A DNA stretch of 64,000 nt, taken from positions 25,292-89,291 of the forward strand of contig CAMFVQ010000058.1 of the NCBI GenBank assembly GCA_945992255.1. Reading direction: 5' to 3'. Below are positions 14,929 to 55,310 of the stretch, one piece after another; the first letter of the stretch is position 1, and every line of letters starts with the position of its first letter. The stretch is from an uncultured Clostridia bacterium (GTDB lineage Bacteria > Bacillota > Clostridia > Christensenellales > UBA3700). The position numbers and the translations under genes are program-made. The notes below the pieces were generated by a model. That model was not told the DNA's origin. It did not search any database and saw nothing but the letters and a program-made list of their open reading frames with translations.

Positions 14929-15672
14929 TCAGAACATTCTATTGTATATTCCACCGCCGACCAGCACCCCTAGTGCGAATGTTACAATGTTGGACAATAT
15001 TGTATAAAGCACGATTTTCATCTTTCGCTCTTTTGGCATAGTCTTACAATATACTATACTCTCAGCCACCACAACAACCACCTCGAATGCCCAATAGAAC
15101 AAAAAATAGTTGACAATTTGGAATCCAATCGCAAAGTCGATGATTGAGAGCGTTTGGTTGAGTGCATAGTTGCTAACAAGATTGGTGATGCCGATGATTT
15201 TGAGTGCTCGTTTGTTCCTGAACACAACCAAGCCAATCAAACACTCTACCACCATTGTAACCAACATTCTGCCGAACGTGGATGCAACTATATATCCCCA
15301 CTTATACTCGGCTTTTACTCCACCAAAAGTCGTAGTGTTGTCATTAGTCTTTTCGGCAAGTTCTTGGAATGTTTTTCCGCCTATGTTGTATGTGTAAAAG
15401 CCCTCAAAGAATTCTCTCTCGAACTTTGGCGAACGCACAATGACCTCGCCCTGCTCAGAAAAAAGCACGATTTGATATTCCTTGTGTGCAATATAATGAG
15501 AATGGAATGTGAAGTCGCCCTCTACATCATAGAAAACAAAGCTCTCCTTATATCCTTCCAACTCATAGTTGTCCACAAAATCATATTTACCCTTTTCTTC
15601 AGACCTAGGGCTATTGGAATTTCCGCCATTTGCAAATATTTTAGCTTGCTTTATCTTACGCACGAAATATCC
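14929..15672 (-). pseudogene. C-terminal part of a host membrane protein gene split by the prophage
   Basis: The frame stays open upstream of the tracked GTG as far as the att core (...HLGYFVRKIKQ...). It joins in frame with the fragment at 55158-55310. The C-terminal half has several TM segments. Confidence 0.7.
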
Positions 15673-15695
15673 AAGGTGGGCTATAGTAGCAAAGG
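15650..15695. other. attL (host arm, TCC core at 15670-15672, phage arm)
   Basis: The 3 nt core is shared with the right junction. The codon/dinucleotide style changes here, and an in-frame host gene can be reconstructed across it. Confidence 0.6.
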
Positions 15696-15736
15696 ACTAC
15701 AGCCAAGGCGTACTAGAACTTGTAGCCTAGTACGTA

Positions 15737-15764
15737 AAAGAGGCTCTCTTATGAGGGCCTCTTT
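15737..15764. terminator. Terminator after the last prophage gene
   Basis: Stem AAAGAGGC / GCCTCTTT, with a T-rich flank on the minus strand. Confidence 0.55.
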
Positions 15765-15767
15765 ATT

Positions 15768-16400
15768 TTAGTTTTTAAGTTTTGCCAGAATTGTAGCTAC
15801 TAGTTCCTCGTCGGCGCCGGTATACTCGCATACCAGCTCTATTACCTCCGACTCATCCGGATCGTTGTCGTAATCCTCGTCGTCCTCATAGTCCTCGTCG
15901 TCCTCGGTTTCGTCTACGCTTTCCGCGTCGGTATCGTTGGCGCTCTCGGTATCGTGGTTAATAAGGTCTTTTACTACGTTCTCAATAGGCTTGCCGCTTG
16001 CGATCGCTATAGCCGCGTCTAATGCCTCTTGTCCCATAGTGTCGTCGTCCTTAAGGGTGGCGTTTTTCTTAAAGAGCCTAAGAACCCATAGTTCTATGTA
16101 CTTGCCAAAGAGATTGTAGTATACTATAGCAAGTGCTCCGCAAGCCGCGCCAGCCATAACAATGGCTACGTCGCCCTCTCCGCTTTTCAAAATAAAGTTC
16201 TTAAGGTAGTAAAGCCCTATGCCTATACCTACTGGAATAAGAAGTATAAGCCTCTCTACCAGCTCGCGCACCGTGCGTCTCTTGATCTTATTGATAAGGA
16301 GCTTTACGGGTATTTTGGCAAACGAGGTAAGTACCATAGTAGCCAGAGCTATAACGAACGGCCAAAAGCCGTAAGTATCAAATAGGTACTGTACGTTCAT
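15768..16400 (-). CDS. Phage membrane protein with a strongly acidic C-terminal tail (holin candidate)
   Basis: Strong SD (TAAGGAGG). About 4 TM segments followed by a D/E-rich tail. Sits at the terminal position where lysis genes usually lie. Confidence 0.4.
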   Translation of the reverse strand: MNVQYLFDTYGFWPFVIALATMVLTSFAKIPVKLLINKIKRRTVRELVERLILLIPVGIGIGLYYLKNFILKSGEGDVAIVMAGAACGALAIVYYNLFGKYIELWVLRLFKKNATLKDDDTMGQEALDAAIAIASGKPIENVVKDLINHDTESANDTDAESVDETEDDEDYEDDEDYDNDPDESEVIELVCEYTGADEELVATILAKLKN

Positions 16401-16411
16401 AGCCTGCCTCC

Positions 16412-16735
16412 TTAGTTACCCTCGTAAAGGGCTTTGATTTTAGCAATGGCGTTGTCGTACTCAGCGCTTACCTTAAAGGTGATAGCTGCTTTTTCTCTTG
16501 CTGCAAAATCGCTAGCTCTCTTTGCGTAGTCCTCGCGAATTGCGGACTCCTTAGCCGAATACTCAGCGTTAAGAGAGGTAAGCTTTTCGGTCATTTCCTT
16601 GTTGATTTCGTGCTGTTTGGGCACTACAACGTTGGCGTCGTTGTCGCGCACTGCTGCGTCTACGGCTCTTGCCTTTTCCTGCTCAAGTACTGCGACCTGT
16701 CCTTGCAAAGTGCTAATAAGGTTGTTGTTAGTCAT
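16412..16735 (-). CDS. Phage hypothetical protein (helical)
   Basis: ORF with a GAGGAGG SD. No recognisable motif. Confidence 0.5.
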   Translation of the reverse strand: MTNNNLISTLQGQVAVLEQEKARAVDAAVRDNDANVVVPKQHEINKEMTEKLTSLNAEYSAKESAIREDYAKRASDFAAREKAAITFKVSAEYDNAIAKIKALYEGN

Positions 16736-16756
16736 TGTTTCGTCCTCCTCTTTTTT

Positions 16757-17122
16757 TTAAATGATAACTGTGTCAATGGTTTTGTTGGTTGGTTCTTGCT
16801 CGTCGTAGTTGCTTGCGTCTGCCGGCTGTTTGAGGTCTGCCGCAGGGTCGTAGCTAGGAATTATGGGTTCCTCGGCTACCGGCTCGTCGTCCTCTACAAA
16901 GTCTGCAAGCGGCGCCCACTTACGTTCAAACTCGGCTTTCTCAGCCGCTACGAGTTTGTCTGCCAAAGGCTTTACGTCCTGCTCGGTAAAGGTGCCTACA
17001 GATAGGTAGGGCGCCAGCGTTGCGCGGATCTCAGCCTCGGCGGTTTCTACTCTGCTCTCCAGTCGTTCCTGATCGGCTTTGTAGGCGGCTGTTAGCTTGT
17101 CTGTGTTGATGCGTTTTGCCAT
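16757..17122 (-). CDS. Phage hypothetical protein (acidic)
   Basis: ORF with an AAGGAG SD. No recognisable motif. Confidence 0.5.
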   Translation of the reverse strand: MAKRINTDKLTAAYKADQERLESRVETAEAEIRATLAPYLSVGTFTEQDVKPLADKLVAAEKAEFERKWAPLADFVEDDEPVAEEPIIPSYDPAADLKQPADASNYDEQEPTNKTIDTVII

Positions 17123-17147
17123 AGTCTCGTCTCCTTGTCTTTATTTT

Positions 17148-17840
17148 CTAAAACGGCAGTATTTGTATACCGGTATAGAATTCTATGTAGTACGCTACTA
17201 TCTTTAAGAGCATATAGGCAAGTAGCAAGCCTAAGCCTGTCCAAATAAAGACCTGCGCTATTTTGGTAAACTCTCTTATGAGTTCCACCGTAGCGTTTAT
17301 GCCTTTAAGCAGGTACAGTATAAGGGCTATAACCAGCCAAGGTAAGGCCGCTACAGTTATGGTAAGTACCATAAAAAACTTGCTGTAGCTCCTGGTCTCT
17401 GCGCCCTCTGTGCGTTGTTTCGGTTTTCCCGTTATGTTACCAAAGTCAAACTCCAGTATAGGCCTAAAGCGTTCATAGAACGCCTCGTTATCTTCGTTGC
17501 CGGCTCTACGTTCCTTGGAACGGGCCTCGGCGCTGTCTGCTTTCATTTCGTGCGTAAGAGCCTTGCCGGCAATCTCTGCGTATTCGTCGGCGTTGTCGTT
17601 GGCAGCCTTTACAGTAGCCGCCGCTTTTACCATTCCCTTGGCTGCCTCGTCTATAGTCATGCCTCCGGTCTTAACCTTGTCTACTATAGCCTCTCCAGCC
17701 ACTTTGGCTATGTCCTCTACTTGTGGCGTCTCGTCCGGTTTTTGCGTATCCGCTACCACCAAAGTGCCTGTAGGTTTTTTGCTATCCACGGCTTGCCTTT
17801 TAGCTAGCTCTTGGTTTACTATTTCGTCTGCGCTTGCCAT
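17148..17840 (-). CDS. Phage membrane protein (soluble N-terminal part, C-terminal TM segments)
   Basis: ORF with a GAGGAGG SD. Hydrophobic C-terminal third. Confidence 0.5.
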   Translation of the reverse strand: MASADEIVNQELAKRQAVDSKKPTGTLVVADTQKPDETPQVEDIAKVAGEAIVDKVKTGGMTIDEAAKGMVKAAATVKAANDNADEYAEIAGKALTHEMKADSAEARSKERRAGNEDNEAFYERFRPILEFDFGNITGKPKQRTEGAETRSYSKFFMVLTITVAALPWLVIALILYLLKGINATVELIREFTKIAQVFIWTGLGLLLAYMLLKIVAYYIEFYTGIQILPF

Positions 17841-17877
17841 AATGTCCTCCTCTTGCCCTCTATTTATTTAAGGGCTT

Positions 17878-18102
17878 TTACTCAAGATTAGCCCGTACCT
17901 CTACGAACCACTCCGGGCGTAAACTTGTAGCGTTTCCGTCGTTAAGTTCGTTGATCTCCTCCAAAGTTTTACCCTCAAGGGCATTACCCCAGCTCTCTAA
18001 CGCAAAATCTACGTCTTGCTGCGTAAGAATACCGGCCTCTTTATCTTGGTTAAGGGTTACAAGTAGAGCCTGTGTACTGAATACCTTTTTTGTTTTTTCC
18101 AT
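17878..18102 (-). CDS. Phage hypothetical protein
   Basis: ORF with a GAGGAGG SD. Overlaps the 3' end of the RT ORF. Confidence 0.45.
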   Translation of the reverse strand: MEKTKKVFSTQALLVTLNQDKEAGILTQQDVDFALESWGNALEGKTLEEINELNDGNATSLRPEWFVEVRANLE

Positions 18103-19150
18103 TGCGTTTGTCCTCCTCGCTTACTATTTTTGTAAGTTTGCCCTTTTTAACTTTAGGCTTTATGTACTTTAGGTAATAGTTTTTACCGTTTGCTATATGG
18201 TGCAGCCAGCCCATCCGGGAGAGTGCCGACCGAGCTTGTCTTACGGTAGGCTGTCCTCGGCGTTCTATGCGCCCTATTACGCGCGTCATATCGTATAATA
18301 TATAGTTGCGTAGCTCCGTATGGTCTCTATAAAACTTAAAGCCTAAGTAGTCTATGGGCCTACTGTCTATAGGGTAAACTTGCCAGTTCCTTTTAAGCGT
18401 AAGCCCGTAGCCGTTCTGGTTAAAGTATTCCTCTACAGCTTTGCGCACCTTGTGTAGTTTCCTTTTGTTAGTATCGAGCATAAGCATATCGTCTACGTTG
18501 CGTACGTAGTAATTTACCTTTAGCTCTTGTTTTATATAGTGATCGAACTCCTCAAGGTAAAAATTTCCTAGCCATTGTGAGGTGTAGTAGCCTATAGGTA
18601 GACCGCTCTCGCCTCCGTGGTCTATTATTTGGTCTAGGAGAGCTATAACTCTCTTGTCCTTTATCTTTTTACGGAGTAACCACTTTAGCTTGTCCTGGTT
18701 TATGCTTTGGTAAAATTTCGATATATCGCATTGGAATACGTGGCGTATCGCCCTGTCGTTCCTTAGTGCTTTCTCTATGTAGTTCTTACCGTATATACCG
18801 CCTCTGCCGGGTACGTTTCCTACGGAGTACTCGTACATACCTTTAGTAAAAATCGCTTGCAGCGGTAACATAACGCACCAGTGTATTATTTGGTCTGGGT
18901 AGTAGCAAGGTACGGAGATCTGCCGTACTTTTTGCTTTGGGCCCTCCCGGCGCTCCATGTACCTGTCGTGCCCTAGCTCTACGTGCTCCGCTAAAAGCAT
19001 AGCCTGTATGTCTATGGCGTACTTATCCATATTGTTGAGTATTCGTTTTACCGACCTGTACTCTCGCTTTTTCTCTGCGGAGCGCCGTATAGCCTCTTTT
19101 ATATTTTCAATGTCGCAGACTTTCTCATAAATATAGCCCTGTCGTTTCAT
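18050..19150 (-). CDS. DGR reverse transcriptase
   Basis: RT motifs including LPIGYYTSQWLGNFYL (the DGR-type IGxxxSQ) and VRNVDDMLML (catalytic DD). Located immediately 3' of a TR that pairs with a VR. Confidence 0.9.
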   Translation of the reverse strand: MKRQGYIYEKVCDIENIKEAIRRSAEKKREYRSVKRILNNMDKYAIDIQAMLLAEHVELGHDRYMERREGPKQKVRQISVPCYYPDQIIHWCVMLPLQAIFTKGMYEYSVGNVPGRGGIYGKNYIEKALRNDRAIRHVFQCDISKFYQSINQDKLKWLLRKKIKDKRVIALLDQIIDHGGESGLPIGYYTSQWLGNFYLEEFDHYIKQELKVNYYVRNVDDMLMLDTNKRKLHKVRKAVEEYFNQNGYGLTLKRNWQVYPIDSRPIDYLGFKFYRDHTELRNYILYDMTRVIGRIERRGQPTVRQARSALSRMGWLHHIANGKNYYLKYIKPKVKKGKLTKIVSEEDKRNGKNKKGIQYTGSTCNP

Positions 19151-19276
19151 TGTTACTTACTTCTTTTACTCTCAAAGCCTTTCGAGGTATCCTACTAGGC
19201 TCTGCCTCTATCGATATTTTTTGCCAAGGGGCAAGGATAAGACAAGCCAAATTATTTTTGTACTTAGTTTTTGTAA

Positions 19277-19387
19277 AAGATTGCGACCGCCGATGTTGGA
19301 GTTCGTGTTCGTGGCGGAATTGTTCGCGTTGAAATACCAAGGCCCAGCGTTGAGCGTGTTATTCCAGTTGCCACCTACGTTGACCAT
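19277..19387 (-). repeat. DGR template repeat (TR)
   Basis: 111 nt aligns without gaps to 19484-19594. All 13 mismatches fall at TR adenines on the minus strand. TR is rich in AAC codons. Confidence 0.9.
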
Positions 19388-19440
19388 ACGGCACGGCTTG
19401 CCTTACCCTATATTTGTTGTTGCTGTTTTACTTACCTAGG

Positions 19441-19462
19441 GCTAGGGGGTAATCCCCCTAGC
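19441..19462 (-). promoter_or_regulatory. GC hairpin just 3' of the VR (DGR target-recognition-type hairpin)
   Basis: GCTAGGGGG-TAAT-CCCCCTAGC on the plus strand: 9 bp stem, 4 nt loop. It lies 7 nt after the target gene's stop codon. Confidence 0.7.
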
Positions 19463-19468
19463 TACCCC

Positions 19469-20902
19469 CTATAGAGGTCTCCTAAGAAGGCGACCGCCGA
19501 CGTTGGAGTACGTGTTCGTGGCGGAATTGTTCGCGTAGAAATACCAAGGCCCAGCGTAGAGCGAGCTATTCCAGCTGCCACCCACGAAGACCACTCTATA
19601 CGTGCTACTTGAGTAATAGCCGTAGTCGCAGTAGTATGTAGTGTCTGAGCCACCCAGGTCTGTGGGAACTTGTACGAACGGGTTAGTCGCGTCATAGCCA
19701 AGTTTTTTAACCCTACTGTTGCCTCCAGTTACGCCGTTATAGCTTACTGCGCTATAGTCAGCAGGTAAAGAACCACTTACGTACTTTGTAGGGTCCTTAC
19801 AAACGTAAGGCTTAAGGCTGTTAACCGTTATACCGTCCATCCATTGATATACGTTGCCGTACCAGTTCTCCACGCCTCTGTATTTCATAGCGTGTTTGCC
19901 GTCCGTATTGCTTATCTCGCTACCGCTGGCGGTAAGGACGCCGTCAGTTCTGCCGGAGGCAATAGCGGCGCTGTTGCCGTTTGCGTAGCCGTACATAATG
20001 CTCTGCGCGTTCGTGGTTGCGAATTCTACCTTAAAGAGGTCCTGCAGCATTACGTGCGCCCAGATATCATACTGCTGGTAGCCTGTTCCGTTCGCCTTGC
20101 AGGCGTTACGCATATTGTTTATATTGATATTTACTAAAGGACTTGCTCCGCTTACGCTCTTAGCCAAGCTGGAGGAGCCGGAGGCGGTATACTTACCTAT
20201 GTCTACGTAGTCAAGCTCTACGCCGTTGCCGTCTGTAAAAATAGGGTTGAGTAGCCACGTATCGTCCGGCTTTTGAACGCATATCTCGGTCTTTTTGTAG
20301 CCGTTCTCGTCAAAGGTATAACGCGTATAGTGTTTAGGTACGCGCATAAACACGTTGCCCTTGTCGTCGGTTACCTCCGTTATATCGCTCCAAGGTCTGC
20401 AGTTGTCAAAGTCGCTGGTAATAGATCCGTCAGCGTTAAGCGTGTAGCCAAGCCCCACCGCGCTGTCGCCCCTTGTAAGTGTAGGATTGCTTGCGCCCTC
20501 TCCGGAAACGCTGAATATTTGAGCCTCGCCAAAGTATACGGCTACCGTGTTTGACGTGTTTTCTGGTACGCCCTCCCCGGCCGCTACTACTCTTACGTTG
20601 TGCGTGGCGTTGTCGTTTGGATTTACGTCGGTTAGATCTATCACAAAAGGCACCGAGGCGCCCTCTGCGGTATAGTCTACCGTTTTTACTAGTACGTCGT
20701 CTATGTAAACCTGTACGCCTGTTACGCCGTCTATTAAGCCGTATACCTCTATGCTTATAGAACTTGTCTTTTCTACTCTCGGCCTAGAGGTATATACGAC
20801 CTCGTTACTAAAATTACTGTCCTCGTATCCGTCTGCTGTTACTTTTAGCTTTAGCGTATACTGTCCGTATGGTAGCTTAAGCTCCTCTAAGTTTTTCTCC
20901 AT
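19469..20902 (-). CDS. Tail-fibre/receptor-binding protein with a C-terminal FGE-sulfatase/C-type-lectin-like domain (DGR target)
   Basis: Start at MEKNLEEL behind AGGAGG. GVENWYGNVYQWMDG and GGSW motifs. The VR lies at the extreme C-terminus. Confidence 0.8.
   Translation of the reverse strand: MEKNLEELKLPYGQYTLKLKVTADGYEDSNFSNEVVYTSRPRVEKTSSISIEVYGLIDGVTGVQVYIDDVLVKTVDYTAEGASVPFVIDLTDVNPNDNATHNVRVVAAGEGVPENTSNTVAVYFGEAQIFSVSGEGASNPTLTRGDSAVGLGYTLNADGSITSDFDNCRPWSDITEVTDDKGNVFMRVPKHYTRYTFDENGYKKTEICVQKPDDTWLLNPIFTDGNGVELDYVDIGKYTASGSSSLAKSVSGASPLVNININNMRNACKANGTGYQQYDIWAHVMLQDLFKVEFATTNAQSIMYGYANGNSAAIASGRTDGVLTASGSEISNTDGKHAMKYRGVENWYGNVYQWMDGITVNSLKPYVCKDPTKYVSGSLPADYSAVSYNGVTGGNSRVKKLGYDATNPFVQVPTDLGGSDTTYYCDYGYYSSSTYRVVFVGGSWNSSLYAGPWYFYANNSATNTYSNVGGRLLRRPL
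19484..19594 (-). repeat. DGR variable repeat (VR), encoding the C-terminus of the tail-fibre protein
   Basis: Encodes ...VVFVGGSWNSSLYAGPWYFYANNSATNTYSNVGGRLL. The TR counterpart reads MVNVGGNWNNTLNAGPWYFNANNSATNTNSNIGGRNL. Confidence 0.9.
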
Positions 20903-20911
20903 GTGCACCTC

Positions 20912-22183
20912 CTATTCTAAAGTTACTTTAAATTGTAAGCTGTCGTTACCGTTGTCGCCACCACCGTCTTTGCGGTATTTTACGTAGACAAAGTGCTCTT
21001 GACCGTCGTTTGGTATCGTGTAAGAAACGATAGGCTGTGGGCTGGTAGAGGATTTGCCCTTAAAGTTAGCAGCGTAAAGCGTCGAGCTGTCCTCTGTGTT
21101 AGAGCGAGCAAGCTCAGTATCGAGCTTGGATAATATACCAAAATCGTAGCTGCTCTCGCCGCTATTTATGCACTCGAACTTCGCTGTCGCTTCGCTACTA
21201 CTACTGAGTACCACTTTGCAAAGCGCGTAGGAGCTCGGTTTTCCCTTATTCGTGCTTTCGTAGTAGCCATTTGCGTTAAGCTCAAATCCGTAAGTTACAC
21301 CCTCTATAGCCTCAACGTAGCAGTTCTTGTAATCTATTACCGAGAATACCTCAACCTCGTTTGCGTAAAGGTGGAGCTGTGTAGCGTATCTCACGCTCTG
21401 CATATCCAGCGTACGACCATCGTTAGCGAGTACGAGCTTAGGCGTATGCAGCTTTAAGGTATCCCAGGCTACAGCCTCTACTGATATATCACCTTGTACG
21501 TTAGCAACTGTTATAGTCCCTGCGTACTCGTCGTATATATACTCTACGGGCTCTCCGTCGGCTGTTACGCTAATTGCCTCTGGCAAGTACTTACCCTCGT
21601 TAGGAACTAGCTTAGCGCTGTATGTTTGTCCGTCTAAGATTTTTACGGCGCTGTTGCTGTTTGTTAGGTTGGTAAGCTCGTTAGTAATAGCAAGCATTTT
21701 AGCTATAAAAGCGGTACTGCCTGGCGCGTCGTTAAAGTTGTTGCCTTTGGCTGCTACCATAATGCTATGCGTTCCTACGTCAAGCCCAGTAAGGCTATAA
21801 CTCGTAGAGGTTATGGTAGCTATCAAGTTACCGTTATCGTAAATTTTATAGCCGGTTACAAAGTTGCCGTTGGAACTTGGGTTTGTGATCGTAAAGCTCG
21901 TACCGTTTCTAGTGGTACTTACCCTATTAAGCGTAGGCATAGCTGTACCGCCGATATAGTTACCTGTTACGCCACCTATGTTTACGCCATTTTTAATATT
22001 ATCCGCTATAAGCGTTACCGGCTTTTCTACGGTTACCTGTACGAGTACGCTACCGTCCGTGGGCGTAATAACCTGATTTCCGGAACCCATAGAGAGAGGT
22101 ACCGTCTTACGTTCCTCCGGTTTAGCAGGAGCCAACCCTCCGCCAGATCCTACGAGAGTTAGAGGGTTTTTTATTCTAGCCAT
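20912..22183 (-). CDS. Phage tail-fibre/baseplate-associated protein (beta-rich, Ig-like repeats)
   Basis: ORF with an AGGAGG SD. The call rests on its position in the tail-fibre block. Confidence 0.45.
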   Translation of the reverse strand: MARIKNPLTLVGSGGGLAPAKPEERKTVPLSMGSGNQVITPTDGSVLVQVTVEKPVTLIADNIKNGVNIGGVTGNYIGGTAMPTLNRVSTTRNGTSFTITNPSSNGNFVTGYKIYDNGNLIATITSTSYSLTGLDVGTHSIMVAAKGNNFNDAPGSTAFIAKMLAITNELTNLTNSNSAVKILDGQTYSAKLVPNEGKYLPEAISVTADGEPVEYIYDEYAGTITVANVQGDISVEAVAWDTLKLHTPKLVLANDGRTLDMQSVRYATQLHLYANEVEVFSVIDYKNCYVEAIEGVTYGFELNANGYYESTNKGKPSSYALCKVVLSSSSEATAKFECINSGESSYDFGILSKLDTELARSNTEDSSTLYAANFKGKSSTSPQPIVSYTIPNDGQEHFVYVKYRKDGGGDNGNDSLQFKVTLE

Positions 22184-22184
22184 A

Positions 22185-48104: not shown

Positions 48105-48116
48105 AATGCCTCCTTG

Positions 48117-48551
48117 TTAGAATGGTATATCGTCGTTGAAATCGTCGGCTGCGCTACTTGTATCCATCTCCGGACGCTTGTCCGTATCCGGTACGAGGGT
48201 TGGCTTGCCTTGGGGTTTCTCTACTAAGTCGCCCAGGATCGTAGCAAAGCGCTTTTTACCGCAAAGGCTCTCTATAGCCGAGAGGCTTAAAAGCTTACGC
48301 TCGTATATGATCTCCTCCGGGTATCCATTAGAGGTAAGGGCTGCTACTACCTTTTGCTCGTCGCTAAAGGTTCTTACGCTACGTCCCTCTACGACCTTAA
48401 AACCTTTGTAGTGCTTGCCTTGTAAAGCTTGCTGTAGGGCGTACTCTTTAACTTGTTTGGCCCATTTTTCTAAGCCGTCTAAGTGAGGAAGTAGCGCCTC
48501 TATTTCCTCGTCGGTTAAAAGGTCTGGGTCTTTTATAGCTGGAATATCCAT
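48117..48551 (-). CDS. DUF2800 C-terminal-like protein
   Basis: Its ATG follows the upstream TAA directly, in the same frame, and it has its own AGGAGG SD. Confidence 0.5.
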   Translation of the reverse strand: MDIPAIKDPDLLTDEEIEALLPHLDGLEKWAKQVKEYALQQALQGKHYKGFKVVEGRSVRTFSDEQKVVAALTSNGYPEEIIYERKLLSLSAIESLCGKKRFATILGDLVEKPQGKPTLVPDTDKRPEMDTSSAADDFNDDIPF

Positions 48552-49325
48552 TTACTTTTGTCCTCCTAATATGTTCAGTATTGAGCTTAAGTAGTGCCTA
48601 GCTCTTTCTCTGCAGGTGGCACGGGCTCTGCAGAATTGGCAATGATCGCCAGCGCTGTATACTCTTGTATCCTTGTAAGCGTCCGCCGCCACTTGCTTTA
48701 TAGATTCGCCCCAGCCCTCCAGCTCCGACCTCGTTAAGTTCTCGGTCGTTATGCTATTTAGCCTTGGCTGTACTATATGGGTGGTAATCTGGTTTATATC
48801 GTAAATGTCGCCGTACTCTTGCAGAGCTCCTAGCGCGTATAGCCTTGGCTGTGGATTTTCTACGGCGTCTACTGCTACGCCCTTACCGTACTTAAGGTCC
48901 ACTATATGTAGCTTTTTTCCGGCGAGGATTATACAGTCTATCCGTCCAAAGCCTCCAGGTACGTACTCGTCGTAGCTTACGCGCTCCTCTATAAAGGTTA
49001 CAGCGTCTCTGTGATTAAGTCGGAGCCCGTCGTACAAGTCCATAACGTAGTCTATGTAGACGTCTACGTATCGCTCCATCTCGGCAATTACCCCTCCGGG
49101 CTGTATAGCTTTGTCTATGTTACGGTAGGCCTCGTCGTAGTCCTCCAGCTTTATACGTCCTGTAAGGTAGCGAAGTTTAGCCTCTGCTAGTTCGTGGGCT
49201 CTGGTGCCCTCCTCTGCATACGGTGACTCGCTCTCTGGGAATAGCGCCTCAAGTACTACGCTGCCGGGGCAGGCCAGCCACCTTTTAGAACCGCTGGCAC
49301 TTAGCTTTGCGTGTTCTCCTGGCAT
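48552..49325 (-). CDS. PD-(D/E)XK (Cas4-like) nuclease, DUF2800 N-terminal part
   Basis: LSASGSKRWLACPGS at the N-terminus, a D...DLKYGKG nuclease core, and a C-terminal CQFCRARATC cysteine cluster. Confidence 0.7.
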   Translation of the reverse strand: MPGEHAKLSASGSKRWLACPGSVVLEALFPESESPYAEEGTRAHELAEAKLRYLTGRIKLEDYDEAYRNIDKAIQPGGVIAEMERYVDVYIDYVMDLYDGLRLNHRDAVTFIEERVSYDEYVPGGFGRIDCIILAGKKLHIVDLKYGKGVAVDAVENPQPRLYALGALQEYGDIYDINQITTHIVQPRLNSITTENLTRSELEGWGESIKQVAADAYKDTRVYSAGDHCQFCRARATCRERARHYLSSILNILGGQK

Positions 49326-49330
49326 ACAGC

Positions 49331-49732
49331 TCAGCCTCCTATAGTTTTAATATCCGCTACGAGCTCGTCGTACTTATCTGCAGGAACGCTACCAAGGTCC
49401 CCGGCGCCGTACTTTTTGAGGATAGCCTTTACCTTAGGTAAGCCGTAAGTATGCTTGGCGTCTGCGAGTATCGCTCTTACGTCCTCTATATCGAGGGCGG
49501 CGGCTTGCTCTGCTTTAGGTGCCGCAGTTGTGTCAGGTGCGCCTTTAGGTGTTTGGTCTACCGTTTCCTCGGTCTTTACGGTTGCCACTTTTTTAGGCGG
49601 TTTTTGAGCCCCTGCAGGGTTGCTCGTTAAGTCTACGCCTACTACTTTGGCGCTGTTCATAGCCGCTAGGAGAGCTCCTAGCATTTCCGCTGTTTTAGGC
49701 TCTAAGCCTATGGTTACTTTGATCTCTAACAT
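49331..49732 (-). CDS. Phage hypothetical protein
   Basis: Start at MLEIKVT behind GGAGGT. Low-complexity central linker. Confidence 0.45.
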   Translation of the reverse strand: MLEIKVTIGLEPKTAEMLGALLAAMNSAKVVGVDLTSNPAGAQKPPKKVATVKTEETVDQTPKGAPDTTAAPKAEQAAALDIEDVRAILADAKHTYGLPKVKAILKKYGAGDLGSVPADKYDELVADIKTIGG

Positions 49733-49782
49733 AGTTTTTACCTCCGTTTTTATTTTTTTTGTGTTAGATCTTGCCGTGTGGT

Positions 49783-49878
49783 TTAGTGGTCGGTATCCTG
49801 GTAGCCGCACTCCGTGCAGTACCATATACCTAGCTCCTCGTCGTACTCCATGTACTCGTCGCAGTTAGGACACCTCAT
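49783..49878 (-). CDS. Small zinc-ribbon protein (31 aa, not in the ORF track)
   Basis: My own translation gives MRCPNCDEYMEYDEELGIWYCTECGYQDTDH*. AAGGAGG SD upstream. Confidence 0.5.
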   Translation of the reverse strand: MRCPNCDEYMEYDEELGIWYCTECGYQDTDH

Positions 49879-49975
49879 TTTCTAGGAAACCTCCTTTCAG
49901 CAATTCGTCTAGGAGCCAGTCTATAAAGTTGTCTAGCTGCGTAGAGCTTGCCGCGTTTTTTTCGTCTTTTGTCAT
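49865..49975 (-). CDS. Small phage hypothetical protein (36 aa, not in the ORF track)
   Basis: My own translation gives MTKDEKNAASSTQLDNFIDWLLDELLKGGFLENEVS*. AAGGAGG SD upstream. Confidence 0.35.
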   Translation of the reverse strand: MTKDEKNAASSTQLDNFIDWLLDELLKGGFLENEVS

Positions 49976-50013
49976 AAGTATTGCACCTCCTTACTTTTTT
50001 TTGTTATTTGTAA

Positions 50014-50034
50014 ATGGTTTCTTTTTGCAACCAT
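50014..50034. promoter_or_regulatory. Operator-like palindrome ATGGTT-N9-AACCAT
   Basis: Same architecture and spacer (TCTTTTTGC versus TCTATTTGC) as the operators at the CI/early-promoter switch. Confidence 0.5.
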
Positions 50035-50049
50035 ATTACGCAAAAAAAT

Positions 50050-50253
50050 TTATTTATCTTGAGCCAAAAGCGTAAAAGCGTCCACGTTATAGGTTTGCGC
50101 TACTCTGCCGAGTAGGACTACCGTCATATCGGTTTTACCGTTAAGGTAGTTGCTTACGGTAGCTGCAGAAACGCCAATCTTTTTGCCTAGGGTTTCGTTG
50201 GTGTCGTGGTTCTCGGCCATAAGACCTCGTATCTTATCGATATTTACTTTCAT
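50050..50253 (-). CDS. XRE-family HTH protein (Cro/antirepressor-like)
   Basis: The HTH ETLGKKIGVSAATVSNYLNGK is present. 67 aa. Confidence 0.7.
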   Translation of the reverse strand: MKVNIDKIRGLMAENHDTNETLGKKIGVSAATVSNYLNGKTDMTVVLLGRVAQTYNVDAFTLLAQDK

Positions 50254-50266
50254 GCTGTTATCCTCC

Positions 50267-50500
50267 TTATAAGTTTTTAAATACGTCTCTTACCAAAGCC
50301 TCCAAGCTGTCTCCGTTTACGTATATTGCGTTAGAGCGGTAACCATCTTTAGTAAGCAGGTAAACTATTTCGTCGTGTGTAGTTTCGTTGTACTCGTATA
50401 CGGCGCCGTACCATCCTGTATCAGCTTGGTAGAGTAGCGGAGAGATTACCTCTTTTACGAATTCCACCTTTCCTTGTATTGTTGATCTGTATACTTTCAT
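50267..50500 (-). CDS. Small phage hypothetical protein
   Basis: The start at MKVYRST overlaps the sigma gene stop as ATGA. Confidence 0.45.
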   Translation of the reverse strand: MKVYRSTIQGKVEFVKEVISPLLYQADTGWYGAVYEYNETTHDEIVYLLTKDGYRSNAIYVNGDSLEALVRDVFKNL

Positions 50501-51069
50501 ACTTTGTCGTCCTCCTCTATGGGTCGTAGTGGGTTCCCTATGGTAATGGCCTTGGCTCGTATACGTTTCCAAATGCTAGAGACGTAGCTGCCTTGCTTTC
50601 GTTCGCCCTTAAGGGCTAGGCATATATCGCTGTTGTTGTATCCCTGCAGGGCTAAGTTTACTACCTCCAGCTCCTCTGGATCAAGGAGCCGCTTAAGCTT
50701 GTCTATCCAAGCTAATAGCTCCTCGTTTGGTGGTTCGCAGTCCTCAGTTACAAGGCTGTCCGCATGCTCCGCTGTTAGTGGTGTTACCATGCCGTTGTAC
50801 TTGCGTATGTTCTTTACCTCTTTGTTGAGCTTATGCTGCGCTACCGTCCTGGCGTATGCATATACGCTACCTATAGGCTTGTAGCTCCGCATGGCTTTGA
50901 GGCACTCATATACTGCTATGCTGGCTAGGTCCTCCCGGTACGCTCGTAGCTCGGCGTCGCTATAGTTCTTAAGCAGGTTGGTTATTATTTTGCAAAAGGC
51001 CGTATATAACTCGTCCTCTGTTGCTATAGATTGAACGCCGTCGTCGTCCCGTATTAGGTATGTACGCAT
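50497..51069 (-). CDS. Phage-encoded sigma-70 family (ECF-like) sigma factor
   Basis: Region 2-like DLASIAVYECLKAMRSY and region 4-like LDPEELEVVNLALQGYNNSDICLAL...VSSIWKRIRAK. Confidence 0.6.
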   Translation of the reverse strand: MRTYLIRDDDGVQSIATEDELYTAFCKIITNLLKNYSDAELRAYREDLASIAVYECLKAMRSYKPIGSVYAYARTVAQHKLNKEVKNIRKYNGMVTPLTAEHADSLVTEDCEPPNEELLAWIDKLKRLLDPEELEVVNLALQGYNNSDICLALKGERKQGSYVSSIWKRIRAKAITIGNPLRPIEEDDKV

Positions 51070-51072
51070 AAG

Positions 51073-51228
51073 CTACCCTCCTCCTTTTGCCGCCTTAATC
51101 AGCGCGTTAAGTAGTTCCCCGTTGGTTCTGCAGCCTGTTTCGGCCTTAAAGTTTGCGAGTTCGCCCAGAGTTTTTATACCAAGGGTCCTGCAGTAGTTAC
51201 AAAGCTTTTTGATTTGTTCAAAGTTCAT
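51073..51228 (-). CDS. Small phage hypothetical protein (51 aa, not in the ORF track)
   Basis: My own translation gives MNFEQIKKLCNYCRTLGIKTLGELANFK...AAKGGG*. GGGAGG SD upstream. Confidence 0.4.
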   Translation of the reverse strand: MNFEQIKKLCNYCRTLGIKTLGELANFKAETGCRTNGELLNALIKAAKGGG

Positions 51229-51238
51229 AGCGTCCTCC

Positions 51239-51598
51239 CTAGCCTATGCTCCTTACGTCTAGCCAGTTTTTTACCCATTCGTATTTGGATTTGGCTACCG
51301 AGCCAAGTACGAGCTCTCGCTCTTTGTTGCGTACAAGTCCGGTTACGGCTACGGTGCCTACGCAAAAGTCTACGACCTTGCCCGTGCTGTCCGGCAGGAC
51401 TATATTTTCCCTGTAACCGTCCTTACACTTACCGTCCTCGTCTACTATAAGTACGAGCCCGTCGTATGGGCTAAACACGTGTACTAGCTGTACGTAGCCG
51501 CCTACTATTTCCTGTAAGTCTGTTATAGCTCCGTCCTCGTCGTCTCTTATGTCTTTAACCTCCGGGTACTCGCCCGGTCTTTTAATTATTATTTTCAT
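51239..51598 (-). CDS. DUF3846-like protein
   Basis: The pattern MKIIIKRPGEYPEVKDI...LQEIVGGYVQ...LIVDEDGK resembles DUF3846. Confidence 0.5.
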   Translation of the reverse strand: MKIIIKRPGEYPEVKDIRDDEDGAITDLQEIVGGYVQLVHVFSPYDGLVLIVDEDGKCKDGYRENIVLPDSTGKVVDFCVGTVAVTGLVRNKERELVLGSVAKSKYEWVKNWLDVRSIG

Positions 51599-51607
51599 AG
51601 TGCCCTC

Positions 51608-51841
51608 CTAGTTTTCTATAGCAGAGGTAGCGTAGTCTATAGCCTCCTCTATGCTGCTTACGGCGGACTCCAAGTTATCTATAACCTCTTGCATTTGCTC
51701 GCCGCGTTCTCCCTCTTGGAAACTTTCCGGTAGGTTGTCGTAGCTTTCCTGCTCCTCCTCTTGGAGGCTCTCAAGCGCGGACTTGAGTTCCTCCATTTGG
51801 TTTATAAGTTCTTGTATTGATTTACGTCTTTGTCTATTCAT
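51608..51841 (-). CDS. Highly acidic helical early protein
   Basis: E/D/Q-rich 77 aa ORF with a GGAGG SD. Confidence 0.5.
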   Translation of the reverse strand: MNRQRRKSIQELINQMEELKSALESLQEEEQESYDNLPESFQEGERGEQMQEVIDNLESAVSSIEEAIDYATSAIEN

Positions 51842-51843
51842 AA

Positions 51844-52074
51844 TTAGTCCTCCGTCTTGCCCCAGCTCTTTACCTCGGCAATGGTGCCGTTCTCAAAGAG
51901 TTCTAGCGTATATAGTAATGCTTGGTTCATACTCCAGCCGAGCGTATCCGTGTAGTACCTAAGTAGCTTGTTTACTGCGTCCTGGCTTACGTCCAGGTCT
52001 GCCGCGTTTTGTAATAAGAGGTTATAGCCTAGCTTTTCCTCTGGTGCTTGTTTTTGTACTTGTTTATTTTTCAT
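51844..52074 (-). CDS. Phage hypothetical early protein
   Basis: ORF with a GGGGAGGGG SD. Confidence 0.5.
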   Translation of the reverse strand: MKNKQVQKQAPEEKLGYNLLLQNAADLDVSQDAVNKLLRYYTDTLGWSMNQALLYTLELFENGTIAEVKSWGKTED

Positions 52075-52089
52075 AGTTAGTCCCCTCCC

Positions 52090-52407
52090 CTAGTCCTCGT
52101 AAAAGTAGAGATCTCCGTTTACAAATTCGTACTGGTACCCTTTGACGTTAAAGCGTATGTAGTTCCAGTCGGTAGCATCGTATAAAGGCTTACGGGTGTA
52201 AGATTCTTTGTGGACCCATTTTTTACCGGTTTCGTCAAGTTCCCAGCTGTCTACTTCGGCTATAATCTCTATTTGCGAAAACTCAAAGCCAAAGTATTTA
52301 TTTATCAAGGCTCTTGCCTCCGTTTCGTTAAGCTGCTTGTAGGCGCTATGCTCTAAGCGCTCGTAGTCCTCTTGGATTAAGTTAGTACCTACTACCTGTT
52401 TTGCCAT
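52090..52407 (-). CDS. First early-operon protein (hypothetical)
   Basis: Start at MAKQVVG behind GGAGGT. Lies directly downstream of the early promoter. Confidence 0.5.
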   Translation of the reverse strand: MAKQVVGTNLIQEDYERLEHSAYKQLNETEARALINKYFGFEFSQIEIIAEVDSWELDETGKKWVHKESYTRKPLYDATDWNYIRFNVKGYQYEFVNGDLYFYED

Positions 52408-52434
52408 ATTATTTTTACCTCCGTTTTGCTCTTG

Positions 52435-52457
52435 TTTGGTTTCTATTTGCAACCAAA
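52435..52457. promoter_or_regulatory. Operator O1: TTTGGTT-TCTATTTGC-AACCAAA
   Basis: Perfect 7 bp inverted arms with a 9 nt spacer, just downstream of the early -10 element. The 18 nt TTTCTATTTGCAACCAAA is repeated at 52523-52540. Confidence 0.65.
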
Positions 52458-52466
52458 GTTTACTTT

Positions 52467-52495
52467 ATTATAGCCGTTTGGTTTCTACTTGTCAA
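52467..52495 (-). promoter_or_regulatory. Early (lytic) promoter
   Basis: The minus strand reads TTGACA, 17 nt spacer, TATAAT. A degenerate operator copy (52477-52499) overlaps the spacer and the -35 element. Confidence 0.7.
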
Positions 52496-52522
52496 CAGTA
52501 TTTTTAGTTTTTTATAAAAAAA

Positions 52523-52540
52523 TTTCTATTTGCAACCAAA
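52523..52540. promoter_or_regulatory. Operator O3 (exact 18 nt copy of the O1 right part)
   Basis: TTTCTATTTGCAACCAAA, immediately upstream of the -35 element of the repressor promoter. Confidence 0.6.
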
Positions 52541-52544
52541 AATA

Positions 52545-52573
52545 TTTACAAGCGTACTATTTTATGGTATAAT
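52545..52573 (+). promoter_or_regulatory. Repressor (lysogenic) promoter
   Basis: TTTACA, 17 nt spacer, TGgTATAAT (extended -10), 30 nt before the repressor ATG. Confidence 0.65.
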
Positions 52574-52603
52574 TGGGTACCATATACTAGGAGGTGTTTA
52601 TAT

Positions 52604-53020
52604 ATGAATAGGTTAAAAGAATTGAGGCTCAATCGTAAGCTTACTATAAGAGCCCTTGCAGAAAAAGTAGGTATAAGCCATACTCAAATTACCCATATCG
52701 AGAACGGTAAAAGGAACCTTACCGTTGAAACGGCGCAGCAGTTCGCCAGCTTTTTTGGTGTATCGGTCGACTACCTTTTAGGCGCTGAGCCTTTGGAAAT
52801 GTTCGACGGCTTTGTAGATTCTATGCGTCGTATATTCTACGTTACGAGTATACATGGCGCCGGCGAGGTTTGCCAAGGTCTGCCCTCGTCTATGGAGCCT
52901 CGCTTACGTACCAAGTTGGAAATACTATTTTTATTGCAGGATCAGCAGAACCCGGAGAGCCTAGAGGCTATATACTCGCTTTGTAGGTCGCTCTCTGCTA
53001 AAGCCGATTTTAGTGACTAG
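52604..53020 (+). CDS. CI-like XRE-family repressor
   Basis: N-terminal HTH LTIRALAEKVGISHTQITHIENGKRN. Divergent from the early operon. Confidence 0.8.
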   Translation: MNRLKELRLNRKLTIRALAEKVGISHTQITHIENGKRNLTVETAQQFASFFGVSVDYLLGAEPLEMFDGFVDSMRRIFYVTSIHGAGEVCQGLPSSMEPRLRTKLEILFLLQDQQNPESLEAIYSLCRSLSAKADFSD

Positions 53021-53031
53021 GAGGTTGCCTT

Positions 53032-53610
53032 ATGAAAAAATTAGCTATTTGCTTTTTAGTGTTATTATTATGTTTGTCGTTCTCTGCCTGCTCTGCAGCG
53101 GAGGAGCCTAAGCCTCAAACGGAACCGGCGGCCGACTACGCTGTCTACTCTATTTTTTACCACGCAAATGGTGGCGAGCTCTCGCCTTATAACCCTGTAG
53201 CGTATAACTCGTTTACCCCTAGTTTTACCCTTATTGCACCGGAGCGTGAGGGCTACCGTTTCCTCGGCTGGTCGCTTAATGAGGACGGCAGCGATCCCGT
53301 ACTCGCTCCAGAGGTCGCCAAAGGTACTACCGGAAACCTCCACTACTACGCCGTCTGGGGTAAGCTCTTATCCGTTCTTATAGATAGCAGCAACCCTAGT
53401 TTTTACACCATTACGCCTATCTCTGGCCCTGTGTGCGCTGGAGAGGTTTATACCGTCCATATTGCTACCGCGGAGCCTGTAAGCTCTTTGCAATGGTACT
53501 TTATAGGCGGCGTAGAGCAAATGCCGGATAGTTGCGTTTATGACGAGGAGCTGGGCGTATTTGTAGTTAAGTTTACGCTTACTAAAAGTATTAGAATTAT
53601 GGTTATATAA
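53032..53610 (+). CDS. Prophage lipoprotein with a Listeria-Bacteroides-type repeat domain
   Basis: Signal peptide with the lipobox LSFSAC. The pattern YHANGGE...TLIAPEREGYRFLGW...YYAVW is present. Confidence 0.65.
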   Translation: MKKLAICFLVLLLCLSFSACSAAEEPKPQTEPAADYAVYSIFYHANGGELSPYNPVAYNSFTPSFTLIAPEREGYRFLGWSLNEDGSDPVLAPEVAKGTTGNLHYYAVWGKLLSVLIDSSNPSFYTITPISGPVCAGEVYTVHIATAEPVSSLQWYFIGGVEQMPDSCVYDEELGVFVVKFTLTKSIRIMVI

Positions 53611-53625
53611 TAGGGGGTTGGTAAA

Positions 53626-55152
53626 ATGATTATAGTTGCTTATTGTCGTTACTCAAGCGAGAACCAAAGGGACGGCTATTCTATCGAGGCGCAAACTAGA
53701 GCTATTACCGAGTGGGCTAAGTCTGCAGGCCATACTATAAAGCGGTTTTACGTGGACGAGGCTCGTAGCGCTACCAATGACGACCGCGCCGAGTTTCAGC
53801 GTATGGTAGCCGACGCTGCGTCCGGAACATTTAAAGCCGTAGTAGTTCATAAGCTAGACCGCTTTGCGCGTGATCGCTACGATTCCGCCGTCTACAAGCA
53901 TAAGCTAAAGCAGTTTGGCGTTAGGGTTATATCCGTTCTGGAGCCCCTAGACGACTCTCCGGAGGCTGTCATGATGGAGGCCGTGCTAGAGGGTATGGCC
54001 GAGTACTTTAGTAAGAACCTCGCCCGTGAGGTCTCCAAGGGCAAAAAAGAAACCGCCCTTAAAGCTCAGCATAACGGCGGTTCTATCCCCTACGGGTTTA
54101 CTATAGACAAAGACCGCCATTATATCCCTATCGAGGAGGAGGCGGCGGTAGTTCGTGAAATATTCAAAAGAGTTGACGGCGGCAGTACGCTTGTAGACGT
54201 CACTAGGTGGGCGGTAGCGCAGGGCTACCGTACTAGGCGGAATACTGCTTTTAACATTTCGTTTATTAGGTCTATGCTTAGGTCGCCTATCTATATAGGA
54301 ACCTATAGCTACGGTAGGCGTAGTACCTCTGGCAGAGAACCTATAGTATTTGAGAATTGCATACCGGCTATAGTAGAACCTGCGCTGTTCTACCGTGTAA
54401 ACGATATGCTGAACAAAAGGGCCAGAGGTCCAAAGCAGCGCCAAAAAGAGGAGGACTACCTACTTACCGGCTACCTTTACTGCGGTATCTGCGGAGCCCA
54501 CCTATTTGGCTTTAAGTCCAAGCAAAAGTATAAAGATAAAGAGTACGTAGCTTACTGGTACCGCTGCTCTCATAGGTCGTCACACCGTATGGAGCCAGGA
54601 ACCGAGCGCTGTAAGCTTAAGGGCGTACACAAAGAGGAAATAGAAACCTTTGTTATTGAGAGTATCAAGGCTAAGCTCTTTGGCGAGGATTCTATAAACT
54701 GGATTGTGGCGGAGCTTGGCAAGCGTATTAAAGCAAGGGCTGCCGCCCCTACCGCTGCGCAGCTGTCCGCCTACCAGGAGGAGCTTAAAAAGCTTAGCGG
54801 TCAAAGAGAGCGCTTGCTAGACCTATACCTTTCCGGGGGTCTAGACAAAGAGCTATACGCAAAAAAGAGCGACGAGCTCTATAGCCGTATAGAGTTCTTA
54901 ACTCAAGAGGTAGCCAAGCTCTCCGTACCGTCTATAGAGATCAGCGCCGAGCGTCTCCGCTCTGCCCTTAAGGTTTTTAACGATAGCGCTAATGCCGATA
55001 GCGTAGAGTATAAAAAAAGGCTACTGTCTACTTTTGTAGACTCCGTAGTCTTATCAAACGATGAGGTTATTATAAACTATAAAGTTACTATACCTGGCTG
55101 GAGTTCGTCTAGCGATAGTTTCGTGCGTAAAGCAAATCACGCTTTGACATGA
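53626..55152 (+). CDS. Large serine recombinase (integrase)
   Basis: The N-terminal resolvase domain YCRYSSENQRDGYSIEAQ carries the catalytic Ser. It is followed by a recombinase domain, a Cys-rich zinc ribbon (CGICG...CSH) and a coiled coil. The stop codon is 5 nt from the att core. Confidence 0.9.
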   Translation: MIIVAYCRYSSENQRDGYSIEAQTRAITEWAKSAGHTIKRFYVDEARSATNDDRAEFQRMVADAASGTFKAVVVHKLDRFARDRYDSAVYKHKLKQFGVRVISVLEPLDDSPEAVMMEAVLEGMAEYFSKNLAREVSKGKKETALKAQHNGGSIPYGFTIDKDRHYIPIEEEAAVVREIFKRVDGGSTLVDVTRWAVAQGYRTRRNTAFNISFIRSMLRSPIYIGTYSYGRRSTSGREPIVFENCIPAIVEPALFYRVNDMLNKRARGPKQRQKEEDYLLTGYLYCGICGAHLFGFKSKQKYKDKEYVAYWYRCSHRSSHRMEPGTERCKLKGVHKEEIETFVIESIKAKLFGEDSINWIVAELGKRIKARAAAPTAAQLSAYQEELKKLSGQRERLLDLYLSGGLDKELYAKKSDELYSRIEFLTQEVAKLSVPSIEISAERLRSALKVFNDSANADSVEYKKRLLSTFVDSVVLSNDEVIINYKVTIPGWSSSSDSFVRKANHALT

Positions 55153-55180
55153 TACACTCCCAAATTCTCTGTGCCAACGA
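55135..55180. other. attR (phage arm, TCC core at 55158-55160, host arm)
   Basis: The core is shared with attL, and host-type sequence resumes directly after it. Confidence 0.6.
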
Positions 55181-55310
55181 CAGATATTCTTGCCTTTGGT
55201 TTTTGCCCCATATCTGCGAAAGCTTGTGGCAAACATAGAAGTATGCCCAACAAAATTGTCAGGCATATTACTATGATTTTGCAAGATTTTTGAGTGTAAG
55301 ATTTTGTCAT
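55158..55310 (-). pseudogene. N-terminal part (signal peptide) of the host gene split by the prophage
   Basis: My own translation gives MTKSYTQKSCKIIVICLTILLGILLCLPQAFADMGQKPKARISVVGTENLG. It then runs into phage DNA (VYHVKA*). Confidence 0.7.

Follow-up and report, generated by a model that had tools for sequence, protein, structure and literature searches.

A serine-integrase prophage in an uncultured Clostridia bacterium that splits a membrane protein gene and exchanges the 3' end of its own integrase gene

The 64,000 bp stretch of DNA analysed here, referred to as the window, is from contig CAMFVQ010000058.1 (positions 25,292 to 89,291) of an uncultured gut Clostridia bacterium of the Christensenellales (GCA_945992255.1; here genome G000). 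The window contains a prophage of 39,503 bp, made up of a 39,501 bp body and one copy of a 2 nt core, that separates the two halves of a single host gene. The body, to which no strand is assigned, occupies window positions 15643..55143 and was delimited by its gene content and by colinearity with a free-phage contig across the attP joint. We conclude with high confidence that a 39.5 kb temperate phage was integrated by large serine recombinase (LSR) recombination into codon 56 of a 292 codon host gene. As attP lies inside the integrase open reading frame (ORF), integration both splits the host gene and remodels the integrase. The finding holds, though it is of an ordinary kind, adding one more serine-integrase prophage to those in coding genes. 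The locus now has exact attB, attP, attL and attR sites, a corrected 292 aa host gene and direct evidence of a free phage genome.

An original prediction, made from the letters of the window, had proposed that a serine-integrase prophage splits a gene whose product has a signal peptide and membrane helices. Comparison with orthologues bore this out: both fragments come from one gene, which has the same upstream neighbour in relatives, and not from unrelated genes. The N-terminal part, on the minus strand at 55146..55310 (codons 1–55 and the last base of codon 56), includes a signal or transmembrane (TM) helix, a conserved ADMG.KP...VVGTENLG motif and VYHVK, and in the prophage state is a 57 aa ORF ending ...VYHVKA. 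This minus-strand ORF from 55310, predicted to read MTKSY...VVGTENLG, is indeed present and reads MTKSYTQKSCKIIVICLTILLGILLCLPQAFADMGQKPKARISVVGTENLGVYHVKA followed by a stop; it continues in host DNA beyond the GGA that was taken as the crossover (...GTENLG-VYHVK, then A and the stop codon). The C-terminal part (14929..15640, minus strand) includes codons 57–292 and the stop codon of the restored 292 aa protein, and encodes most of a beta-sandwich domain and four TM helices, a fold taken from the AlphaFold2 (AF2) model of orthologue P0003. The ORF predicted at 14929-15663 (minus strand) was found and encodes 244 aa ending ...GGGIYNRMF before the stop, but its frame, which runs upstream through ...SFATIAHLGYFVRKIKQAK..., is open to 15696 and not only to 15672.

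When the joined protein was searched against 61 genomes (G000 and 60 relatives), two matches, corresponding to the two fragments, were returned for G000, and a single match for every one of the other six genomes in the genus. Five of the six span approximately residues 6–296, four as a single uninterrupted frame and one, in G006, with an in-frame TAG codon. The sixth, in G003, is 73% identical and spans residues 1–169, up to the end of the G003 contig. The single gene that had been expected in related genomes was thus found in all six. An Exo_endo_phos gene (55321..56430, minus strand), identified by domain search, provides a host synteny anchor upstream of the split gene. It was found upstream of the orthologue in all four relatives for which the flank was read, directly in L002, L003 and L007, and with one small DUF1294 gene between the two in L036. 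The restored gene has 292 codons, with the insertion in codon 56, and aligns without gaps with the orthologues P0002, P0003, P0004, L003 and L007. The closest orthologues read VVGTENLGVYHVKIFAKGG (G003/P0002) and VVGTENLGMYHVKIFASGG (P0003). From these, the VYHVK that follows GGA at attL is host sequence, and the host gene resumes at attR with IFANGG. The orthologue pattern ...GTENLG[V/M]YHVKIFA... is therefore that of the host side of attL joined directly to the ...IFANGG of attR. In the G006 orthologue (L031, near locus 1530), the in-frame TAG is in the conserved ADMGPKP motif (ADMGP-stop-PQATF), and could represent a pseudogene, a sequencing error or a read-through codon.

The phage was also found in free form, as a genome of approximately 39 kb in several samples. 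The free-phage contig used here (Logan SRR20632265_44959, 38,976 bp; locus L021) shares 91–96% nucleotide identity with the prophage and joins window position 55142 to 15641, so that the phage left-end genes directly follow the integrase gene. In a blastn comparison, L021 positions 4428-7157 matched window 52408-55142 and positions 7159-7403 matched window 15641-15885, colinear on both sides. The L021 locus spans window positions ~47694 through attP to ~25900, and the remaining 21,728 nt of the contig compare with 21,794 nt in the window. We infer that this contig is a whole, circularly permuted phage genome without host flanks.

Together, the DNA of the G003 orthologue and the free-phage contig with its intact attP fix the boundaries, and hence the crossover, which is TT on the plus strand (AA in the sense of the host gene). 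The G003 attB DNA reads ...CATGTCAAAATATTCGCC, the window attL reads ...CATGTCAAA / GCGTG and the window attR reads ...AAGCTAAA / ATATTTGC. The attL site (55123..55166, minus strand) consists of a phage half-site at 55123-55143 (GTGCGTAAAGCAAATCACGCT on the plus strand), the centre at 55144-55145 and a host half-site at 55146-55166; the L021 match ends at 55142, and host identity with G003 runs through ...CATGTCAAA. The attR site (15620..15663, minus strand) consists of a host half-site at 15620-15640, the centre at 15641-15642 and a phage half-site at 15643-15663 that ends in the GTGCGTAA arm, and was assigned from the end of the L021 blastn match at 15641, the G003 attB DNA and the dyad analysis. 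The GTG start called for the ORF at 14929-15663 falls in this phage arm.

Phage and host sequence meet somewhere in the AAA at 55143-55145 (minus sense) and in the AAAA at 15639-15642. The rebuilt attP is 44 bp, GTGCGTAAGATAAAGCAAGCT-AA-AGCGTGATTTGCTTTACGCAC in the sense of the host gene, with a 21 + 2 + 21 geometry. Dyad symmetry about AA/TT is present at 16 of 21 positions, compared with a window-wide null of 5.2 ± 2.05, and a score of 16 is reached at a fraction of only 4.7e-5 of positions. The two arms of attP, GTGCGTAA and TTACGCAC, form an inverted repeat with 44 bp between their outer ends, and code for FVRK and LRT. The rebuilt attB reads ...GGGAGTGTATCATGTC-AA-AATATTTGCAAATGGCGG..., and identity between attB and attP is limited to AA(A). 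At its centre the L021 attP reads GCT-AA-GGCG, while the attP rebuilt from the window reads GCT-AA-AGCG; this T-to-C difference and the dyad geometry favour a central dinucleotide at 55144-55145 and 15641-15642. The joints are predicted to be ...CATGTCAA / AATATTTGC for attB and ...AAGCTAA / AGCGTG for attP.

The original prediction had placed the crossover elsewhere, at a GGA/TCC core (15670-15672 and 55158-55160), with attB as GGCACAGAGAATTTG-GGA-TATTTCGTGCGTAAG, attP as CTACTATAGCCCACCTT-GGA-GTGTATCATGTCAAAGCG and a restored gene of 297 codons. GGA is present at both positions in minus sense and the join does give an in-frame ORF of 297 codons, but there is next to no chance that this is where recombination occurred: 55146-55160 is host DNA that is present in the intact G003 gene, and 15643-15672 is phage DNA, which in the free phage directly continues the integrase gene. 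The orthologue DNA and the free-phage contig thus contradict both att sites built on GGA, and the attP lacks dyad symmetry (at most 6 of 15 positions). The 297 aa product fares no better, as YFVRKIKQAK in place of VYHVK amounts to a 5-residue insertion that is seen in 0/7 orthologue sequences. GGA, which is 13–15 nt from the true crossover at attL and 28–30 nt from it at attR, is a chance 3 nt identity. The misleading in-frame YFVRK at attR arises because the inverted attP arms read F-V-R-K on each strand, GTGCGTAA encoding FVRK on both. That attP overlaps the 3' end of the integrase gene, as had also been proposed, was confirmed.

The prophage form of the integrase (53626..55152, plus strand) is 508 aa and contains the Pfam domains Resolvase, Recombinase and Zn_ribbon_recom. 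The catalytic domain (PF00239, E = 3.9e-28) covers residues 3–146, with R8, S10, S11 and R15 invariant in 25 relatives; PF07508 and PF13408 were also found, and long helices are predicted at residues 336–432 in the AF2 model. A catalytic serine domain, Recombinase and zinc ribbon domains with a coiled coil, and simple att sites identify the enzyme as an LSR. In a Foldseek search, the model of a free-form relative (P0005) matched the SPbeta, PhiC31, Bxb1 and A118 integrases with a probability of 1.0.

The prophage integrase is phage-coded as far as Leu507, and its last codon (Thr) and stop codon (TGA, 55150-55152) are host DNA. The detached 3' end of the gene is at the other end of the prophage (15643..15730, plus strand) and includes the third base of Leu507, codons 508–535 (ACFILRTKYPRWAIVAKDYSQGVLELVA) and a TAG stop codon at 15728-15730. 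Just past this stop is a terminator-like hairpin (15737..15764, plus strand; a 12-pair stem followed by a T run) that is cut off from the integrase gene in the prophage. When the prophage was joined into a circle in silico, a 535 aa integrase ORF was recovered (...SFVRK(499-502)ANHAL(507)ACFILRTKYPRWAIVAKDYSQGVLELVA), and attP falls within codons 499–514 of this 535 codon free-phage gene. P0005, from the free-phage contig, is 98% identical and has the length (535 aa) and C-terminus predicted from the circle, with one L-to-P change in the tail; the tail of P0276 (535 aa) is identical to the rebuilt one.

The 90% identity cluster of this integrase has eight listed members of 535 aa, on contigs of 4 to 40 kb, four of them of 39–40 kb. 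Other forms in the cluster diverge immediately after ...FVRKANHAL507, continuing with T-stop, stop, G-stop, KMCNH-stop or NHCNH-stop. With P0278, P0280, P0282 and P0287 (integrases at least 90% identical), there are five different host-coded ends in the cluster, placing the phage lineage at several flanks; these flanks might represent either the orthologous gene in other hosts or secondary attB sites. Another cluster member, P0283 (538 aa, on a contig of 96,524 bp), matches the free form through ...ANHAL-AC and continues differently after that (IKLRNDDIQ...); its left end may be recombinant, or its attP may have a different right arm.

Among the closest cluster representatives of at least 450 aa (P0005 to P0069), 42 have an FVRK-type motif near the C-terminus. 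An LRTEF-type motif follows in 23 of these, at a fixed 13 codon spacing in 22, and the LRTEF-type relatives continue with a conserved tail (...P..A[IV]...D[YF]S...), while the other 19 of the 42 end in short or unrelated sequence. Some representatives are recognisably two forms of one enzyme, namely P0021 (551 aa) and P0022 (529 aa), P0012 and P0016, P0035 and P0036, and P0037 and P0038. In the relatives seen, free forms keep the tail and integrated forms bear host-coded ends in its place.

The same layout was found at the DNA level in a second phage, with an integrase 52% identical to the one in the window, for which a free form (L025) and an integrated form (L024) could be compared. Identity between the two extends over 73 nt and is lost at attP, which is GTGCGTAAAAATTCAAATACC-CC-TCTATTTGTTTACTTACGCAC and has the same 21 + 2 + 21 geometry and the same outer arms. 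Downstream of the integrase gene are phage genes (HicAB, XkdX and a reverse transcriptase of a diversity-generating retroelement, DGR) in L025, and AT-rich DNA and an unrelated gene, absent from the free form, in L024. Conserved tail residues are specified by different codons in each phage (Pro CCA/CCG, Arg AGG/CGC, Ile ATA/ATT and Ser AGC/TCG), and therefore the conservation beyond the half-site acts at the protein level.

In the AF2 model of the 535 aa form (mean pLDDT 79), the crossover is in a disordered linker (residues 492–507, pLDDT below 50), and the tail forms confident strands at 511–517 and 530–534, beside strands at 471–476 and 480–485. As the A118 and SPbeta integrases align only to approximately residues 484 and 476, respectively, the tail is an addition to the canonical LSR core. 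It is possible, though we are inclined to doubt it, that this tail of approximately 28 residues (...LRTEFP..A[IV]...D[YF]S...) is a functional module whose removal on integration changes the stability or directionality of the enzyme. Its role might be to promote attP x attB recombination, to hold back excision or to label the protein for turnover following infection. If so, this would be an integration-dependent switch on the serine integrase itself, common to a group of phages of gut Clostridia whose integrase genes each include their own 44 bp attP (FVRK-N9-LRTEF). A full-text literature search returned no account of an LSR losing a conserved tail on integration, which is not proof of absence. 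An ssrA-like degron at the end of the tail (...ELVA) was considered and rejected, as in relatives the last residues of the tail are hydrophobic without being conserved, and a folded strand is predicted for the segment; it survives solely as a possibility within the module reading above.

Under the mechanism we propose, the integrase would recognise the 44 bp attP and attB, cut both at the central AA/TT and swap the halves to generate attL and attR. Aligned sequences give the boundaries, attB and attP, both integrase isoforms and the layout that recurs in related integrases; the 2 nt cut is what knowledge of the LSR family and the 21 + 2 + 21 geometry point to. After integration, the host gene is left as a 57 aa signal-peptide stub that keeps the promoter and signal peptide, and a C-terminal fragment without a start or signal peptide of its own, behind a phage terminator and with the GTG in the phage arm as its sole start. 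The gene is presumably silenced in the lysogen. In the integrase, the conserved 28-residue C-terminal tail is replaced by a single host-coded Thr and a stop codon. Precise excision would restore both ORFs. Transcripts from the host promoter would cross the 57 aa stub and enter the prophage, where they would be antisense to the integrase gene at its 3' end, and integrase transcripts, without the terminator at 15737-15764, would extend into the host stub and the Exo_endo_phos gene, again in antisense.

Several points weigh against this account. Identity alone leaves two AA positions within AAA, such that the central dinucleotide is uncertain by 1 nt; the exact cut is deduced from sequence, and excision in this strain is a prediction. 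Activity of the 508 aa integrase is assumed; the truncated enzyme may well be active. Excision by an LSR needs a recombination directionality factor (RDF) encoded by the phage, and no candidate for one was identified; RDFs have no common sequence family (PMC11795197). No empty site from the same species was found in the collections searched, where the nearest intact orthologue is 76% identical.

The insertion could also be a regulated, reversible switch, as in active lysogeny or at SPbeta/spsM and skin/sigK, in which excision without lysis, for example at sporulation, restores the gene. Precise excision would indeed rebuild an intact and conserved 292 aa ORF, attB adjoins the most conserved motif of the protein, and the host encodes Spo0A and SpoIVA and may sporulate. 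However, the split gene has no link to sporulation and no Pfam, NCBIfam or PDB-fold match, and no excision regulator was found. The element is a complete phage that also exists as a free genome, which an ordinary lytic and lysogenic cycle explains, and the five different host-coded ends in integrated forms argue against a dedicated partnership with this gene. We consider such a switch improbable.

There is likewise only a small chance that the prophage is locked in, with an inactive 508 aa integrase and the host gene permanently lost in this lineage. Going by the model of the 535 aa form, the prophage integrase lacks two predicted beta strands of the C-terminal domain, which, with the missing attB (empty site) and attP contigs in the host's own assembly (none when up to 2 mismatches were allowed) and the lack of a named lysin family among the terminal ORFs tested, would fit such a state. 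Yet all of the phage ORFs examined are intact, and the prophage is 91–96% identical to, and colinear with, the free phage genome. Approximately half of the FVRK-bearing relatives have the conserved tail and approximately half have other ends, as expected if integration and excision are routine. As the A118 integrase ends near residue 484, the tail is outside the canonical LSR core.

Apart from the integrase, the prophage body includes left-end ORFs at the lysis position without a named-family match, a DGR, and tail, head, packaging, replication, immunity and integrase modules. TerL and the capsid protein were found by domain search, and portal, TerS, tape measure, DNA polymerase, primase-helicase, helicase and exonuclease genes were also annotated. 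From its gene content, the element is an intact temperate tailed phage of siphovirus type, with packaging, head, tail, replication and immunity modules and intact ORFs, in which a lysin was not recognised. The left-end ORFs in the usual place of lysis genes (15768-17840, minus strand; 210, 107, 121 and 230 aa) matched no named NCBIfam family, and the 210 and 230 aa ORFs also matched no named PHROGs family; no endolysin was recognised among them.

The DGR occupies window positions 18050-20902. Its reverse transcriptase gene (RVT_1) is at 18050-19150 on the minus strand, and its template and variable repeats (TR/VR) are 110 nt repeats at 19277-19386 and 19484-19593 that are 89% identical, located at the 3' end of a gene for a 479 aa tail-fibre-like protein. 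An RVT_1 gene is found at the same relative place in the related phage that encodes P0021. At the other end of the prophage, an intact gene for a CI-like HTH_3 repressor (PF01381, E = 5e-18) is at 52604..53020 on the plus strand. Integration-dependent immunity of the BPs type was considered and rejected, as this repressor gene is intact and 2.1 kb from the crossover, and attP is in the integrase gene. Between the repressor and integrase genes is a small gene (53032..53610, plus strand), identified by domain search, for a 192 aa protein whose N-terminus resembles that of a lipoprotein and which contains a Listeria-Bacteroides repeat (Flg_new). It is in a position typical of lysogenic-conversion genes, is likely expressed in the lysogen and is also present in the free phage.

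Relatives of the phage were sought in several collections. Among GenBank phages, there was no nucleotide match to 20 kb of the prophage and the best identity to the integrase was at most 36%. In IMG/VR, the exact attP pattern had no match and the integrase relatives were only 33% identical. When the same phage and target were sought in reference genomes, the nearest integrase was 35% identical among 74 genomes of the family and 55% identical among 401 genomes of the order.

The split gene itself belongs to a widespread family. When 1.84 billion proteins were searched with HMMER, 636 cluster representatives were returned at E <= 1e-3, mostly of approximately 290–300 aa and aligned over their full length. 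The members scanned had no Pfam or NCBIfam match above curated cut-offs. The AF2 model of orthologue P0003 (pLDDT 72) has an N-terminal helix, a beta-sandwich at residues 38–166 and four TM helices at 169–290; a Foldseek search of it against the PDB returned no significant fold, the best E value of 0.011 not being taken as meaningful. In the protein, attB corresponds to the turn after the first strand and adjoins the invariant VVGTENLG motif. The genes for Spo0A and SpoIVA in the 1.48 Mb host genome (C29:3031-3333 and C10:38360-39070) score above Pfam cut-offs, and the host may sporulate despite its small genome.

Serine-integrase phages of the A118 and phi10403S type in Listeria split comK, and their excision without lysis can restore the gene (active lysogeny). 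The A118 integrase lacks the extra C-terminal tail that is present in the free form here, its alignment ending near residue 484. In archaeal virus integrases of the SSV1 type, attP is within the integrase ORF and integration partitions the gene, as here; those enzymes are tyrosine recombinases in archaeal hosts that target tRNA genes, whereas here a serine recombinase in a bacterial host targets a membrane protein gene. SPbeta in spsM (SprA, SprB) and skin in sigK (SpoIVCA) of Bacillus subtilis are, like the element described here, LSR elements inside a coding gene, with the integrase at one end of the element and an ORF that is rebuilt by precise excision (PMC8270828). The free-form integrase model here matches solved SPbeta integrase structures. 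However, in SPbeta attP is between sprA and sprB (PMC8270828), outside the integrase ORF, and excision is tied to sporulation via the RDF SprB, with spsM having a role in the spore envelope, whereas here attP is inside the integrase ORF and no RDF was identified.

Two other systems have an attP within a phage gene. The Psychrobacillus phage Perkons integrates into floA using a serine integrase of approximately 550 aa (ORF165), and, as here, the att core is inside the 3' end of the integrase ORF, generating chimeric integrase and host ORFs (PMC13245101). The Perkons core is 18 bp and in frame, and gives a 667 aa Int-FloA fusion, whereas the sites here have only 2–3 nt in common and integration takes the integrase from 535 down to 508 aa. 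Many relatives of the integrase here also have the tail and the FVRK...LRTEF arms, and the likeness to Perkons is one of layout. In mycobacteriophages BPs and Brujita, attP is also inside a phage gene and gives virus and prophage isoforms that differ at the C-terminus (PMC3694055, PMC4557955). There, the gene is that of the repressor, the enzyme is a tyrosine recombinase and an ssrA-like degradation tag is removed, whereas here the serine integrase is remodelled and the repressor is intact.

What adds interest to this phage is that attP is embedded in the integrase gene, that free and prophage isoforms result, and that many related integrases show this layout. For serine integrases of this group from gut Clostridia, attP can be read directly from the 3' end of the integrase gene, which provides ready integrase–attP pairs for recombinase mining, and the C-terminus alone separates free from integrated copies in metagenomes. 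The lysogen is a natural knock-out of an uncharacterised but widespread membrane protein. For the phages themselves, a testable question is raised, namely whether the loss of the tail on integration regulates the enzyme.

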